Source: a virus. Taken from it: a stretch of DNA of 54,320 bases. Position 1 is the first letter of the stretch, and every line of letters starts with the position of its first letter. Both the position numbers and the translations under genes were made by a program. The notes under the pieces are model-generated. The model was not told the origin of the DNA, did no database searches, and saw only the letters and a program-made list of their open reading frames with translations. This document shows, one piece after another, positions 2,309-18,815 of the stretch. The stretch lies in UHGV virus genome UHGV-1522278. One strand, given 5' to 3'.

Positions 2309-2485
2309 TTACGCCACCGTTACATTGTCAACTTTGATAAAATATTCAGGATGGTTTTCTATTTCGTGCTTGAAGTGTGCGTGACACAATCGCCAATCAC
2401 GCGCCTGGTTGTGAAAGTAATAAACATATTCGCCATCAATCTTATACAAAATTCCAGTAGGTTTAGCCATATAATAACGAGCCAT
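2309..2485 (-). CDS. hypothetical protein
   Basis: start trimmed to the internal ATG at 2485 (GGGGG RBS; ATG overlaps the ninB stop by 1 nt); 58 aa. Confidence 0.45.
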   Translation of the reverse strand: MARYYMAKPTGILYKIDGEYVYYFHNQARDWRLCHAHFKHEIENHPEYFIKVDNVTVA

Positions 2486-2916
2486 TATTGCCCCCAGCGT
2501 TTTATAAATTCCTCGTTTAACTTCGTATCGCCAGACCACTGAACACCGTGTTCAGCGCCGAACGAGTAGATCAGTTCGATTAATTCGCTAAATTCTGATT
2601 TACTCATCCGGCTGGTTGATGTTCCCAGCACAACAAAACCTGATTTATCCAGGTTAGGGACAACGCCATATTTCTTAAGCCCGGCAGTGAATACCGCCTT
2701 CCAGTCTTCCGGCGACAGCTTTTTGCCGTACCAATTAACCTGATCGCTAACGTCTGTCAGCAGCGCCCAAAGTAACGCGTTTTGACTCAGCGAGCGGGTT
2801 TTCTCCTGGATGGTAATGACCAGCGGGCTTTTGCTATCAGGCAGGATTTCCTTTATCTGCCTGATAGCGTTTTCTTTTACGGCATCGTTGACTATTTCAA
2901 ATCTTATTTGCCTCAT
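2485..2916 (-). CDS. ninB: NinB-like recombination protein (Orf family)
   Basis: 143 aa with clear similarity to lambda NinB (IQE..RSL.QN..LWA.L.DVS.QV.W.G, VVPNL, GFVV.G.STSRM). Confidence 0.85.
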   Translation of the reverse strand: MRQIRFEIVNDAVKENAIRQIKEILPDSKSPLVITIQEKTRSLSQNALLWALLTDVSDQVNWYGKKLSPEDWKAVFTAGLKKYGVVPNLDKSGFVVLGTSTSRMSKSEFSELIELIYSFGAEHGVQWSGDTKLNEEFIKRWGQ

Positions 2917-3956: not shown

Positions 3957-5372
3957 TTAAAAAGATGTGTTATTCTGATTGTTTCGTTGGTTAAAACGGC
4001 TTGTGCGATGATTCATTGACTGAATACACGCGGCGGCGGCGCGAGCCTGGTCGCATGGCAAGATATTACCGTTGTCATCAAACCGCTGGTAAACAGTTCC
4101 AGACTTACCATGACGGTTTTTTGACACAATGATTTCCATATATTCGCGGGCAACAGACTGTTCATCGTAATATCCATCTCGGTAAACCATGATTATCCTG
4201 TCGGCATCTTGCTCAAGGTTGCCAGAATCACGAAGATCAGAATTGTTAGGGCGCTTGTTCGGTCGTTCCTCAACGCGGCGTGACAGTTGCGCCAGCGCCA
4301 ACACTGGTACACGCAATTCTTTCGCCATCATCTTCAACGACCACGACAATTGCCCTACAGCGAGATCGTGACGTTCGGCCTTAGCCAGCTTCATTAACCC
4401 GATGTAGTCAATCATTACCATGCCCAAATTTGGGTGATCCTGTTTCATGCGTTCCGTTGTTGCGCGTATTTCCTCAACCGTTAACTGCGACGCGTCAACG
4501 ATCCACACATCAAGGTTAGCAAGTGCGCTCATGCCCTGGCCGACATGCGCCCACCCCTCATCATCAAGTTTTACCGGATTGCGCAGGCAGTCGGTTGATA
4601 AATTACCAGCGCCAGCGATGGCGCGTTCAGTCATCTGATCGAGTGACATTTCAAGCGTGAAGAACAAAACGCCAACCCGCTGATCTTTACTGCCAGGGTA
4701 AGGGCGTTCAGCGGCAGCGCGGGCAATTGCAAGCGCCAACGCAGATTTACCAGACCCAGGACGTCCAGCTAAAAGCACCAAATCAGTAGCGTTAATGCCG
4801 CCCAACATCTCATCGAGTGGATCTATCCCTGTTTTGATGTTGTCAGAATTAACACCGCATTCCATGCGCTTGCTTAAAACGTCCGTATATTCCTGTACCG
4901 CATCACGCAACAGAACAGGAATGATCTTATCTTTCGTTACCTTTAATTTTGAATACCGGGAATCAAAATCTTTCATCGTCTCTTTGACGACCTCAAGCGT
5001 CCCCGTCTCCAGTTTGTAGCGCATATCGTCGATGAGTTCCAACATCTGCCGCCGCTGGTGCTCTTCACGTAGTAGCTGTGCGTATCCCTTAAGGTTGGCA
5101 GCAGAAGGGCACGAACGCGCCGTTTGCATTAGGGGCACGAAATTTTCATTGCCAATCTCATCGCCAACAAGCAATGCGTCTATCAGATTCCTGTTTCTGG
5201 CTTGCGCCCGGATAACTTCAAACGCACGTTTATAAAGCGGGATCGTGAACACTTCAGGATCAAGCGTGGCGAGAACATCTTGCGCGTTAGGAGTAAGGCC
5301 ACCCAACAACAGCCCGCCGATAACTGACGCCTCACGTTCCTGCCGTAGTGAGTTTATTTGCTCAGTTACCAT
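3957..5372 (-). CDS. replicative DNA helicase, DnaB family
   Basis: 471 aa; Walker A GRPGSGKS and DnaB-like N- and C-terminal regions. Confidence 0.9.
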   Translation of the reverse strand: MVTEQINSLRQEREASVIGGLLLGGLTPNAQDVLATLDPEVFTIPLYKRAFEVIRAQARNRNLIDALLVGDEIGNENFVPLMQTARSCPSAANLKGYAQLLREEHQRRQMLELIDDMRYKLETGTLEVVKETMKDFDSRYSKLKVTKDKIIPVLLRDAVQEYTDVLSKRMECGVNSDNIKTGIDPLDEMLGGINATDLVLLAGRPGSGKSALALAIARAAAERPYPGSKDQRVGVLFFTLEMSLDQMTERAIAGAGNLSTDCLRNPVKLDDEGWAHVGQGMSALANLDVWIVDASQLTVEEIRATTERMKQDHPNLGMVMIDYIGLMKLAKAERHDLAVGQLSWSLKMMAKELRVPVLALAQLSRRVEERPNKRPNNSDLRDSGNLEQDADRIIMVYRDGYYDEQSVAREYMEIIVSKNRHGKSGTVYQRFDDNGNILPCDQARAAAACIQSMNHRTSRFNQRNNQNNTSF

Positions 5373-14672: not shown

Positions 14673-14909
14673 ATGGTTAAGAGCTTTTTTAACTGGTTGG
14701 GGGCGTGGCTTTTGGCTACGCTTTTTGTTTTTTTGGTGTTCAGCGGCGGCATCGTCATATTTACGCTGGCTGTGATGTTTGTTACATGGTCAGTACCTGA
14801 GTTTAATGACTTGGGATCTATTCTTACCATAGCCCGCGCTTTATTGGCTGTTAGCTCATTTATTGGTTTTTGCTGGACTGTAGCGCCTGATTGGGGTGAT
14901 GAATGGTGA
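14673..14909 (+). CDS. small membrane protein
   Basis: 78 aa with two predicted TM segments. Confidence 0.5.
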   Translation: MVKSFFNWLGAWLLATLFVFLVFSGGIVIFTLAVMFVTWSVPEFNDLGSILTIARALLAVSSFIGFCWTVAPDWGDEW

Positions 14910-15147
14910 TCCTATGGCTTTGTTTAATATGTCAGAGCCGCAATTTAACGCCGTTAAAGCTGCCGCCCGCGCCGCGCTTTCTGCCTGCAAAGCGGAGGTA
15001 GAGAAAAACGGATACAGCGATAAAGCTACGCGGCTGATATTAGAAAAGCATTATCGCAAAGTCGCCCCGCTAATCAGCATCGAGCGTTTTGTCTGGCTGG
15101 TGGGGTATTTAAACAACAGATGGGGAACTGATCAGGATTATTTCTAA
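14896..15147 (+). CDS. hypothetical protein
   Basis: 83-aa ORF. Confidence 0.45.
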   Translation: MMNGDPMALFNMSEPQFNAVKAAARAALSACKAEVEKNGYSDKATRLILEKHYRKVAPLISIERFVWLVGYLNNRWGTDQDYF

Positions 15148-15156
15148 GGGGGCGTA

Positions 15157-15696
15157 ATGAAGAATGACTACGGCGGAAGCCATACGCCGAAGGAAATTAA
15201 AGACCTATGGCAGACGCCAAAACCAGTTTTTAGAGGAATGGATCGCGAGTTCGAATTTGTCGCAGATGTGGCGGCAAACAAGGCAAATGCGCTAGTTCCG
15301 CGATATATAACCGAAGAAATGGACACATTGCATTATCCGTGGGGAGCGGTGGCAATGCCTGGTGAGTATGTATGGCTTAATCCGCCATATTCTAATCCGG
15401 GGCCATTCGTTGATAAAGCTGCGCTTGAACACAGCAGAAACCATATCGGATGCGTAATGCTGTTGCCCGCTGATATTTCTGTTAACTGGTTTATGAACGG
15501 CGTGGGGACGGCAAACGAATGCAGATTAATCACGCGCGGGCGGCTGGCTTTTATAAATGCTGCGACTGGTAAGCCAGTGAGCGGAAACAATAAAGGCAGC
15601 TTGTTTTTGATCTGGCATCCACGGTGCAGACATGAATGTATTTTTACACACGTAACGCGCAAAGATCTATATGCAAGAGGTGCAGATAATGACTAG
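15157..15696 (+). CDS. phage-type DNA N6-adenine methyltransferase (Dam-like)
   Basis: 179 aa with the catalytic NPPY motif (VWLNPPYS). Confidence 0.85.
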   Translation: MKNDYGGSHTPKEIKDLWQTPKPVFRGMDREFEFVADVAANKANALVPRYITEEMDTLHYPWGAVAMPGEYVWLNPPYSNPGPFVDKAALEHSRNHIGCVMLLPADISVNWFMNGVGTANECRLITRGRLAFINAATGKPVSGNNKGSLFLIWHPRCRHECIFTHVTRKDLYARGADND

Positions 15697-16186
15697 TGCA
15701 GCAGATTTATTACGACTTGCAGCGGAAACAATTGAGCAAAGAGGGAAACAAAACGGATACGACAGAAAACAAGAAAAATCAGCGCCAAAAATAGCCACTA
15801 TATACAACGCTAAGAAGGGCGCAAATTTAACCCCACTTGATGTATGGGATCTGTTGATTTGTCTTAAGGAGGCGCGTTTAGAGGCAATTTTGGCTAATGG
15901 TTCTGACCCTACTGATACTTTGGTTGACTTAATCAGCTACAGCGCACTAAAAGCGGAGCAAATATTAAATGATCGGGAGAATGAGCAAAAGAAAAATCAG
16001 TTCACTGCCGCCAATATTAATGATGGAATAATAAATGACGCAGCAATAACAAGCTGTAAGGGGTTGCCACCTTCAATGCTTAATCCTCAATGTGGTTGTA
16101 TTTCAACTCGGCTTGATTTGAATTTCAAAAGATCTGAGGCTATTCGCGATAAGAGGTATGACCCAAATGAAAAAGGTGACAATTGA
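15689..16186 (+). CDS. hypothetical protein
   Basis: start taken at the ATG at 15689 (AGAGG RBS); helical N-terminus MTSAADLLRLAAETIEQRGKQNGYD. Confidence 0.5.
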   Translation: MTSAADLLRLAAETIEQRGKQNGYDRKQEKSAPKIATIYNAKKGANLTPLDVWDLLICLKEARLEAILANGSDPTDTLVDLISYSALKAEQILNDRENEQKKNQFTAANINDGIINDAAITSCKGLPPSMLNPQCGCISTRLDLNFKRSEAIRDKRYDPNEKGDN

Positions 16187-16670
16187 CAGGTTATTGGCCT
16201 GCGTTTACGTCGCCGTTTTCGTGATCATCAACCTTATTGTTAACCATTGCGGTCCGTGGGTAATTCCTATCACCACGGTAGCCGTAGTGTGTGTCAATAT
16301 GATGATCCGCGACTTTCTGTTATATGACGGCGGCCTGAAATGGTCGGCTACAACATGCGCCGCCGCTGGCGCAATCACGGTGCTGATAAATTATGACGCA
16401 GGGATGGTGGCAATCGCGTCATTCGTCGCGGTTGTTTCTGGTGCGCTTATATCTGGCGGCGTTTACCGGGTTTTACCTGGTGATTTCGATTCGAAACGCT
16501 GGCCTGCAAATATAGCGTCAGCCATTGGCGATGCGTTGATTTTCCCTACGTTATCGTTTATGGCATTCATGCCGGAAATATCAGCAATGCAATTCATCTC
16601 AAAAATGGCAGCGGTAACGGTGATCACTATCATCATGCGCCGCTATTTCACGTTTGAGGGCAAAAAATGA
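16158..16670 (+). CDS. integral membrane protein
   Basis: 170 aa with 4-5 predicted TM segments. Confidence 0.6.
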   Translation: MTQMKKVTIDRLLACVYVAVFVIINLIVNHCGPWVIPITTVAVVCVNMMIRDFLLYDGGLKWSATTCAAAGAITVLINYDAGMVAIASFVAVVSGALISGGVYRVLPGDFDSKRWPANIASAIGDALIFPTLSFMAFMPEISAMQFISKMAAVTVITIIMRRYFTFEGKK

Positions 16671-17449
16671 GCAAGGGTAAACACTGGTTAAATAATTGGC
16701 TTAGAAGTTGGGTTGTGTGGTCGCTGTACGACGGCAGCGGGTACGCCGTTAAAGATTGGGCGGAAGCAGGATATAAGTGCTATTGCTTCAACTATGACGG
16801 CGCAAATCACGGCGATTATGAAGGCGTTAAAATCATTCATCCGAATATTGAATACGTTAACGTGTGGATTGACAGCCATTTCCTGGTAATGTTCTCCCCT
16901 GAATTGTCTGTTTATCCAGAGCCTGACATTATCTTGGGTTTTCCTCCATGCGACGATCTCGCCGTGTCTGGCGCTCGCTGGTTCGCTGATAAACGGAAAA
17001 AAGATCCTGACTTCCAGGTGAAGGCGGCGAATAGCGCAAAACTGGTAGAAAAACTGGCGGATATGCACAACGTTCCGTGGATGGTGGAAAATCCGGTGGG
17101 AGCACTGTCAACGCTATGGCGCAAACCTGATTTTATCTTCAACCCGTGCGCTTACGGTGGCTACCTGCCTGAAGATGACAAACATCCTGCTTTCCCTGAT
17201 GTTTACCCGCCGCGAGACGCGTACACGAAGAAAACTTGTATTTGGTGCGGCAACGGATTTAAACAGCCGCTTTTTAGACCTGTAGATCTTAACTCTGGTG
17301 ATAACCCTGGGTGGGCGAAAACCGGAGGAAGGACGAAACGAACAAAGATGATCCGCTCACTAACGCCGCGTGGCTTTGCCCGTGCTGTATTCCTGGCTAA
17401 CGACCTGGCCATCAATCGTGCTACGCTCAACCGCGTTTTACCGGACTGA
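16667..17449 (+). CDS. C5-cytosine-methyltransferase-like protein (divergent, short)
   Basis: 260 aa; motif I-like LYDGSGY, PC motif GFPPCDDLAVSG (PCD rather than PCQ), ENV-like MVENPVG; no obvious target-recognition domain. Confidence 0.55.
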   Translation: MSKGKHWLNNWLRSWVVWSLYDGSGYAVKDWAEAGYKCYCFNYDGANHGDYEGVKIIHPNIEYVNVWIDSHFLVMFSPELSVYPEPDIILGFPPCDDLAVSGARWFADKRKKDPDFQVKAANSAKLVEKLADMHNVPWMVENPVGALSTLWRKPDFIFNPCAYGGYLPEDDKHPAFPDVYPPRDAYTKKTCIWCGNGFKQPLFRPVDLNSGDNPGWAKTGGRTKRTKMIRSLTPRGFARAVFLANDLAINRATLNRVLPD

Positions 17450-17608
17450 AATTTACAAAATGGCGTCATTGCGTGATGTGGATCACATAATGGCGCTTTT
17501 TACCTTGTTCTGACGTATCCATTTTGTATACTTCAAACAAGCAAAATGCTCTTTAAAAATCCGGCAGCGCTGAAATGCGTAGAAATCACCTGAAAAGGAG
17601 AGAGCATT

Positions 17609-17785
17609 ATGCCTTTTGATAATTACCAATGGCATGACGACTATGAACGAGAAAGCGTCATGCGTGCAATGTGCAATGTATGCAGCACGAAGAAAGGAGA
17701 CTGCAACGAGTGCAACGAATGTTTAGATCATTGGCTAAAGGCCGGACACGCCGAAAGGCTGAACGAAACAGAGAATCAAAAATAA
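17609..17785 (+). CDS. small Cys-rich protein (58 aa)
   Basis: AGGAGA RBS; Cys cluster CNVCSTKKGDCNECNEC. Confidence 0.4.
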   Translation: MPFDNYQWHDDYERESVMRAMCNVCSTKKGDCNECNECLDHWLKAGHAERLNETENQK

Positions 17786-17799
17786 TCGGGGTGGTTTTT

Positions 17800-18405
17800 A
17801 TGCAAAACCCTAAAAAACCCATAAGACGCCGTTGCAAATGCTGCGGCGTTTTTTTTGAGCCTAAATATCACAATCAAACATGGTGCAGCGATGAATGTCT
17901 GGAAGAACTGAAATTTGATCAGCTATGTCGCGATCGTGAGAAGGCTATGAAGGCTATGGAACGGAAGAAACGCCGTGATAGCCAGCGTGAGGAACGCAAC
18001 CGGAAGCGGAAGCAGTTAAATCCGCGCAGCTACTGGATTAAACAGGCGCAAAACGTTTTTAACGCTTATATACGCGAGCGTGACGCGCTATTGCCGTGCA
18101 TATCATGCGGGACTTACTACGGTGAGCAATGCGGGTGGGATGCAGGCCATTACAGGACGGTAGCCGCCGCCGGACACCTTCGCTTTAACGATGATAATTG
18201 TCACAAGCAATGCAGGCACTGCAACCAGACACTAGACGGCAACATCGGAGGGTATCGCCCTGCGCTGATTCGAAAAATTGGCCTCGCCAGGGTAGTAGCT
18301 CTGGAGAACAACAACGAAACTCACAAATGGACGATAGAAGAATGCAAGGAAATCATAAAAGTCTATCAGGCTAAATTAGACGCCTTAAGGAGAAAGGCAG
18401 CATGA
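17800..18405 (+). CDS. ninG: NinG/Rap-like recombination protein
   Basis: start at the ATG at 17800; Cys-rich NinG-like sequence (CKCCGVFFEP...WCSDEC, CISCG, CHKQCRHCN). Confidence 0.8.
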   Translation: MQNPKKPIRRRCKCCGVFFEPKYHNQTWCSDECLEELKFDQLCRDREKAMKAMERKKRRDSQREERNRKRKQLNPRSYWIKQAQNVFNAYIRERDALLPCISCGTYYGEQCGWDAGHYRTVAAAGHLRFNDDNCHKQCRHCNQTLDGNIGGYRPALIRKIGLARVVALENNNETHKWTIEECKEIIKVYQAKLDALRRKAA

Positions 18406-18815
18406 ACGAATATACATTTAGCCTACCTTACCCGCCATCGAATAACCGCTATTACCGACATTCGCGCGGTTTTCACTATATAAGCAAAGTTGGGAAGGAA
18501 TATCGGGAACAAGTAAGAGACATCATCGAGCTATTAAATTTAAACATTAACCTACCTTGCCGACTGGCAATCGCCATCTATGCCGCGCCGCCGGATAACC
18601 GGATCAGAGATCTGGATAATATCCCTAAATGCCTTTTTGATAGCCTTACCTATGCCGGATTTTGGAAGGATGACGGGCAAATTGACTCAATAAAAATTGT
18701 CCGCTGCCGGAAGGTAAAAGGCGGACGCTTGTTTATTAAGATCCGCGAACGCGGCGACCTGCTACCGGATATTGACGAATACGCGACGAATACGTGGGGG
18801 TTACAATGGAGCTAA
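18402..18815 (+). CDS. rusA: RusA-type Holliday junction resolvase
   Basis: 137 aa; RusA-like N-terminus LPYPPSNNRYYRHSRG and DLDNIPK acidic motif. Confidence 0.85.
   Translation: MNEYTFSLPYPPSNNRYYRHSRGFHYISKVGKEYREQVRDIIELLNLNINLPCRLAIAIYAAPPDNRIRDLDNIPKCLFDSLTYAGFWKDDGQIDSIKIVRCRKVKGGRLFIKIRERGDLLPDIDEYATNTWGLQWS

Follow-up and report, generated by a model that had tools for sequence, protein, structure and literature searches.

The four-gene block

The virus genome UHGV-1522278 (54,320 nt; "the window" below means this whole stretch of DNA) contains four overlapping open reading frames (ORFs) that fill positions 15157-17449 of the + strand according to the ORF list. In order, these encode a Dam-type adenine methyltransferase, a DUF6378 protein, a multi-pass membrane protein, and a protein of 260 amino acids (aa) that bears motifs of DNA cytosine-5 (C5) methyltransferases and is the main subject here (Table 1). 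An earlier reading of the letters alone, called here the original prediction, had placed a cluster with an NPPY Dam and a membrane protein at these coordinates, and both the ORFs and the matches to PF05869 and TIGR01712 bear this out.

Table 1. Features of the four-gene block and of the DNA just downstream
Feature	Position	Strand	Evidence or conservation
Phage Dam-type N6-adenine DNA methyltransferase, 179 aa	15157-15696	+	PF05869, TIGR01712, phrog_111; equivalent to mEp021 gp30
Dam catalytic motif NPPY, residues 75-78	15379-15390	+	
DUF6378 protein, 165 aa from ATG 15689	15689-16186	+	PF19905, 32.7 bits; equivalent to mEp021 gp31
Multi-pass membrane protein, 170 aa, predicted short divergent VUT/YhhQ (PF02592) member	16158-16670	+	phrog_4899, E 2.3e-46
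Predicted compact DNA C5-methyltransferase, 260 aa, phage "Dcm-like" family	16667-17449	+	phrog_757
Motif I-like S-adenosylmethionine (SAM) loop, Y21-D-G-S-G25	16727-16741	+	G23, S24, G25 invariant in 28 family members
Motif IV, F92-P-P-C95-D-D97, catalytic cysteine (by homology)	16940-16957	+	P93, P94, C95 invariant
Motif VI, E141-N-P-V144 (ENV-like)	17087-17098	+	E141, N142, P143 invariant
K188-K189 in place of motif VIII arginines	17228-17233	+	K188 invariant
Invariant C-terminal block, T226-KMIRSLTPRGFARAVFLA-N245	17342-17401	+	Invariant columns; just before and inside the C-terminal helix
Terminator-like hairpin and U-run	17463-17501	+	RNA fold -24.3 kcal/mol, z -3.5; stability reached by 0 of 200 shuffled sequences

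Neighboring ORFs of the block overlap by 26, 29, and 4 nt, the first of these overlaps shrinking to 8 nt if the DUF6378 gene starts at 15689. The window is a relative of the published mEp021/mEpimmI group of Nus-dependent, temperate coliphages (~93% DNA identity). Across the block, the identity to this group is 87-94%, with mEp010 as the best match (93.6%), and in mEp021 (MH706966) the same four genes appear in the same order as gp30-gp33. There, the annotation gives the predicted terminators t3 and t4 as the bounds of gp30-gp33 and sets nutR2 just downstream. The hairpin and U-run of the window lie 14 nt past the stop codon of the C5 methylase gene, and t4 (TERM_4) of mEp021 is at the equivalent place. 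Given the ORF overlaps, this terminator-like hairpin, and the t3/t4/nutR2 annotation of mEp021, the four genes can reasonably be taken to be co-transcribed from an N-antiterminated early operon. Prophage copies of the four-gene block are present in 35 of 5,426 complete E. coli genomes. Among mEp-like relatives, the median ratio of nonsynonymous to synonymous substitution (dN/dS) is 0.053 for Dam, 0.20 for DUF6378, 0.066 for the membrane protein, and 0.054 for the C5 methylase; purifying selection of this degree (0.05-0.20) argues that all four are real genes.

The compact cytosine-5 methyltransferase

The original prediction described the 260-aa protein as having C5-methyltransferase motif I, PC, and ENV-like motifs without a recognizable target-recognition domain (TRD), and this description stands: the motifs read YDGSG, FPPCDD, and ENPV. 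In alignments, the YDGSG loop pairs with FAGGGG of the carboxymethyltransferase CmoX and FAGIGG of E. coli Dcm. Only ~25 residues separate the strand at 190-195, which is equivalent to motif VIII, from the C-terminal block at 226-245; thus, the canonical TRD is missing. Lys-Lys stands where the RxR of motif VIII is expected, and a conserved, well-predicted loop (residues 160-190) is inserted in the same region. This loop might, speculatively, serve as a DNA-recognition element.

The AlphaFold2 (AF2) model of the protein is confident, and its best structural matches are DNA C5-methyltransferases: DNMT3B (score 13.8), CmoX of Synechococcus phage S-B43 (SpCmoX, 8yf3; 12.7), the prophage methyltransferase 3g7u (12.3), M.HaeIII (11.3), and M.HhaI (11.2), with generic Rossmann enzymes scoring lower. 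This is the structural comparison that the original prediction had called for, and it comes out on the side of the C5 enzymes. As modeled, the fold is that of a class I Rossmann methyltransferase, nearest to known C5-methyltransferases. That the protein acts on RNA instead of DNA, for example on tRNA in the manner of Dnmt2, is very improbable, the least probable of the readings considered.

By itself, the sequence of the 260-aa protein has no match in Pfam (even at E 0.1), NCBIfam, or the PDB. However, it belongs to PHROG 757, "DNA methyltransferase" (E 7.5e-87, residues 5-253), and this compact family is large: of the 8,000 candidates examined, more than 7,700 gave significant scores, and tblastn has hits in 1,517 of 50,697 phage records. 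Its hosts include T1-like Drexlerviridae, Jersey-like and Dhillonvirus siphoviruses, rV5-like myoviruses, and many phages of Klebsiella, Salmonella, and Vibrio. Members are typically 227-240 aa long; those of the mEp clade extend ~13 aa further at the N-terminus and ~15 aa further at the C-terminus. A weak match to PF00145 is found in 14 of 28 relatives (E <= 1; best 1.3e-6), and the family profile finds DNMT3B and HaeIII in the PDB marginally, over motifs I-IV only (E ~0.2). More than 100 relatives show no variation in the catalytic cysteine, the glutamate, Lys-Lys, or the SAM loop. For this family, a search of the literature found no measured recognition sequence or cofactor range.

The Asp that follows the catalytic cysteine, presented in the original prediction as PCD in place of the usual PCQ, is indeed there, but it is not a hallmark of the family. 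Among 120 relatives, motif IV reads PPCTD in 102 and PPCD in 6. Within the mEp clade, all 37 IMG/VR copies that keep motif IV have FPPC followed by D. By these counts, PCD is a conserved substitution specific to the mEp clade, in a family whose norm is already PCT rather than PCQ. DNMT3 enzymes also lack PCQ; motif IV of DNMT3B reads PCNDLS.

One member of the family has been characterized. Escape mutants of phage K42 selected against retron Ec86 all map to a 711-bp "Dcm" gene, in a genome 95.4% identical to that of KarlJaspers (Bas06), and expression of this Dcm is toxic only when the retron is present (10.1101/2023.08.16.553469). By liquid chromatography coupled to mass spectrometry (LC-MS), 5-methylcytosine (5mC) in the multicopy single-stranded DNA (msDNA) is raised by wild-type K42 Dcm and not by a C82A/E128A/K175A/K176A mutant; the authors modeled the enzyme on DNMT3A, and worked in dcm+ MG1655, whose own Dcm does not set off the retron (10.1101/2023.08.16.553469). 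Later papers restate that a phage cytosine methyltransferase activates retron Eco1. The corresponding 711-bp Dcm-like gene of KarlJaspers (Bas06_0055) encodes 236 aa with C82, E128, K175, and K176. The window protein aligns with it at 62% identity over 232 aa with two short gaps, and each of the four residues has its counterpart 13 positions further on, at C95, E141, K188, and K189. An end-to-end alignment with an ordinary, characterized 5mC methyltransferase had been named beforehand in the original prediction as one result that would speak against a non-canonical enzyme, and the KarlJaspers/K42 Dcm, with its LC-MS record, is essentially that. From this alignment, 5mC is the most likely product. 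Thus, the idea of something other than a plain Dcm-like methylase keeps its ground only for the architecture, which is non-canonical (no match to PF00145, and a probability of 1.3% in hhalign with Dcm); the chemistry is probably ordinary.

Taken together, these results make it likely, at about three chances in four, that the 260-aa protein is an active, SAM-dependent, orphan DNA C5-methyltransferase of the compact phage "Dcm-like" family, encoded in the N-antiterminated delayed-early operon of an mEpimmI-type coliphage together with Dam. By homology, Cys95 would attack C6 of the cytosine and Glu141 of ENP would engage N3/N4, after which the methyl group of SAM, held by the YDGSG loop, would pass to C5, with Lys188 and Lys189 serving instead of the motif VIII arginines. 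With a TRD all but lacking, the target must be chosen by other parts of the enzyme or its assembly; the catalytic loop, the loop at 160-190, and/or oligomerization as in DNMT3 may speculatively be suggested. 5mC together with the N6-methyladenine made by Dam would be expected to mask the phage DNA from methylation-sensitive restriction, and an anti-restriction role for the C5 methylase is plausible. The cost would be that methyl-dependent nucleases could attack the DNA and that retron Eco1 (Ec86), a sensor of the compact enzyme family, could be set off.

Several points weigh against this assignment. The window protein itself falls below every curated profile, and canonical motifs VIII, IX, and X, like the TRD, are absent or unrecognizable in it. 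The experimental 5mC and retron data come from K42 Dcm, which is of the PCT type and not of the PCD clade. Furthermore, the LC-MS assay of K42 was aimed at 5mC only, so that other products are possible, and the CCWGG specificity of the K42 enzyme was assumed from the host Dcm, with the msDNA mutants as its sole support (10.1101/2023.08.16.553469). Finally, in the BASEL study such methylase genes showed no simple relation to restriction resistance.

The loss of the TRD and of recognizable motifs VIII-X, the unusual Asp beside the catalytic cysteine in the mEp clade, and the dispensability of the gene in relatives would also suit a DNA-binding relic with little or no catalytic activity, acting as a regulator or decoy rather than writing methylation. 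However, the catalytic residues and the SAM loop do not vary across more than 100 relatives, the C5 gene is under strong purifying selection, and the T-type homologue is active in vivo, with a phenotype that needs this activity. A relic of this kind is therefore quite improbable.

Another conceivable product of the enzyme is 5-carboxymethylcytosine. SpCmoX is a natural phage C5-carboxymethyltransferase with an SPPC motif, has Arg350 in place of Asn304 of M.HhaI, and has the genes for CmoA and an amide ligase as neighbors (PMC12783734); in addition, a Lys at the Asn304 position makes carboxymethylases of M.MpeI and M.MedI (PMC12015181). E. coli CmoA supplies carboxy-SAM, and a CmoX-like or dual-cofactor enzyme in the window phage could draw on it. 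The invariant PPC of the 260-aa protein and its invariant R230, 5 residues before the C-terminal helix (residues 235-257 in the AF2 model), would agree with such an enzyme. Against it, the motif reads FPPC and not SPPC, the product of the K42 homologue is 5mC, and a low-confidence hhalign alignment sets S231, rather than R230, opposite Arg350 of CmoX. With SpCmoX, hhalign covers motifs I-IV only (24% probability). In low-confidence, low-MAC local alignments, the block at 226-245 falls either on motif IX of Dcm, with 7 of 12 residues identical, or on motif X of CmoX; thus, its resemblance to Dcm motif IX is no smaller. No C5-methyltransferase in the PDB was matched by a profile built from the C-terminal 65 residues, and forced global hhalign gave no meaningful alignment. 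DNMT3A and DNMT3B carry GRS, with its Arg, at motif X and yet use SAM, which also counts against carboxymethylation. Finally, neither CmoA nor a CmoY-like amide ligase was found among the window ORFs scanned. Carboxymethylation is accordingly unlikely. The same grade applies to the broader proposal that the entire compact PPC-type family accepts host carboxy-SAM and writes 5-carboxymethylcytosine, alone or mixed with 5mC. If this long shot came true, a second natural cytosine modification would exist in ~3% of sequenced phages, T1-like, rV5-like, and Klebsiella phages among them, and the mEp-clade Asp beside the catalytic cysteine might tune the choice of cofactor or target.

Gene loss and the companion genes

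Related loci were gathered with a narrow alignment and are mostly from mEp-like phages. The four-gene block is conserved across ~45 mEp-like loci, 45 of which were scored for the C5 gene: it is intact in 36, cut by the contig end in 2, and lost or disrupted in 7 (7 of the 43 informative loci). A 175-aa HNH endonuclease-like ORF replaces it in L013 and L015 (4510-5037), and in L041 (~4510-4590) it is cleanly deleted. In L043, L045, and L049 (4510-5085), an in-frame deletion of residues ~52 to 165 has removed the PC and ENV motifs, while in L047 (4498-4854) the gene is truncated. All of these loci still keep Dam, DUF6378, and the transporter gene intact. Judged from these losses and the purifying selection on intact copies, the C5 methylase is a functional but dispensable accessory gene. 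The frequent losses could be explained by the cost in nuclease and retron Eco1 exposure proposed above.

The methylase also occurs in other company. It lies between small ORFs and a SNF2 helicase in a Jersey-like contig, among small early genes in a T1-like contig, and 7 kb from Dam in KarlJaspers, and it has neither a VUT nor a DUF6378 gene beside it in any of the three. Conversely, where phages of 120-140 kb encode distant relatives of the membrane protein, no Dam, DUF6378, or compact methylase gene was found within 4 kb of them. Because the methylase occurs without the membrane protein and has been lost in 7 of 43 relatives, there is no conserved methylase-transporter module, and the grouping of the two proteins into one anti-restriction or modification module, as the original prediction had suggested, is not supported. 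The four genes make up an ordinary accessory block for methylation in a known group of gut coliphages, and not a new modification system.

The membrane protein is the equivalent of mEp021 gp32 and has hydrophobic segments throughout. Its own sequence has no match in Pfam, and a word-indexed search with it returned close relatives only. An exhaustive search of representatives, however, found 153 relatives; Vut_1 (PF02592) is matched by 33 of the 36 aligned relatives (best 1.3e-13), and hhalign of the family profile with E. coli YhhQ gives 90.5% probability (E 1.3e-6) over 141 columns. By these profile matches, the protein is a short, divergent transporter of the VUT/YhhQ family. The VUT gene is conserved in all 45 mEp-like loci; in the window it lies between the two DNA methylase genes. 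Distant short-VUT homologues (34-47% identity) are found in contigs of 120-140 kb phages in DNA-metabolism neighborhoods (L054, 3965-6225; L056, 2677-5189). One of these homologues lies two genes upstream of an N6_N4 DNA methylase; another is flanked by an ATP-dependent DNA ligase on one side and a MazG-like pyrophosphohydrolase on the other.

E. coli YhhQ is a preQ0/preQ1 transporter. Consequently, the four genes might be read as one DNA-modification pathway in which the transporter imports a precursor, such as a 7-deazaguanine base, that is then installed with help from the methylase-like proteins. The overlap of the genes, the persistence of the block in ~45 mEp-like loci and 35 E. coli prophages, and the presence of YhhQ homologues in some phages with 7-deazaguanine DNA (PMC6884629) are in line with this. 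However, the methylase without the transporter and the transporter without the methylase both occur in other phages, and relatives that lack the C5 gene retain Dam and the transporter. Hutinet et al. also found phage YhhQ homologues to be uncorrelated with any 7-deazaguanine modification group (PMC6884629). A single pathway built from the four genes is thus very improbable. The 7-deazaguanine pathway as such was rejected: no DpdA/tRNA-guanine transglycosylase and no preQ0 synthesis genes were found among the scanned ORFs of the left arm and the early region.

The first gene of the block scores 174.2 bits against PF05869 (cut-off 28.1; E 2.4e-51) and 136.5 bits against TIGR01712 (cut-off 97.05), and on these scores is a textbook phage Dam. 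In the ORF list, the DUF6378 gene begins at ATG 15671 (171 aa), six codons upstream of 15689. The real start is probably 15689, since every homologue, mEp021 gp31 included, is at most 165 aa long and begins MTSAAD, six codons later than listed. Its AF2 model has low confidence (predicted local distance difference test 56), and Foldseek returned only generic helical bundles with E > 1. The PHROG label "phosphofructokinase" attached to this protein is not credible.

Upstream of the block, an 83-aa ORF of phrog_303 (unknown function) at 14896-15147 (+) ends 10 nt before Dam; by position only, it holds the place of mEp021 gp29, "ipe" (inducer of pleiotropic effects). Downstream, the nutR2 site described for mEp021-type phages should fall just beyond the hairpin at 17463-17501. 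A nin-like set follows at 17609-18815 (+), consisting of a NinF-like 58-aa ORF, NinG (PF05766), and a RusA resolvase. The GTG start listed for NinG (17671) is probably too far upstream; NinG of mEp021 has 201 aa. NinB is encoded on the opposite arm, at 2485-2916 (-).

Significance and comparison with known systems

In its present form, the finding is of little consequence. The C5 gene is already annotated as a putative cytosine methyltransferase in the published mEp021 genome, and its family has a characterized member. Nevertheless, the compact family is the trigger of retron Eco1 and is present in therapy phages. Because the family escapes Pfam and NCBIfam, a minimal C5-methyltransferase of this type is often left "hypothetical." The repeated loss of the C5 gene within one phage group would fit a trade-off between escape from restriction and sensing by host defenses.

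Among the known systems, E. coli Dcm (CCWGG, PF00145) shares the logic of motifs I, IV, and VI with the window protein, and the same chemistry is expected. However, Dcm is a 472-aa enzyme with a full TRD, whereas the window protein is nearly without one and shows no homology across the CCWGG TRD. Orthology with the host Dcm was rejected, the hhalign alignment being confined to 25 columns around motif IV. Among the annotated ORFs of the window, no gene for a Vsr partner was found. Consequently, "Dcm-like" is a label of convenience that implies no orthology. SpCmoX differs in its length of 372 aa, in having a full TRD, motifs VIII-X, and SPPC, none of which is recognizable in the window protein, and in being flanked by CmoA and the amide ligase in S-B43. 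The catalytic domains of DNMT3A and DNMT3B are 12-19% identical to the window protein. They retain recognizable motifs VIII-X and a TRD loop; the window protein is also without known regulatory domains or a DNMT3L-like partner.

Much closer is Bas06_0055 of K42/KarlJaspers, which shares the compact architecture, the PHROG family, and the Cys, Glu, and Lys-Lys in register. It has PCT where the window protein has PCD, and the latter is longer by 13 residues at the N-terminus and ~15 at the C-terminus. KarlJaspers is a virulent, T1-like phage in which the gene stands apart from Dam; the window enzyme belongs to a temperate mEpimmI phage and lies beside Dam. Closest of all are the mEpimmI phages themselves (mEp010, mEp554, and others), which have the same four genes and whose proteins are known from sequence. 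In mEp021, gp30 is already annotated as Dam, gp32 as a membrane protein, and gp33 as a putative DNA cytosine methyltransferase, from which the C5 gene of the window differs in its last 48 nt, encoding the C-terminus.

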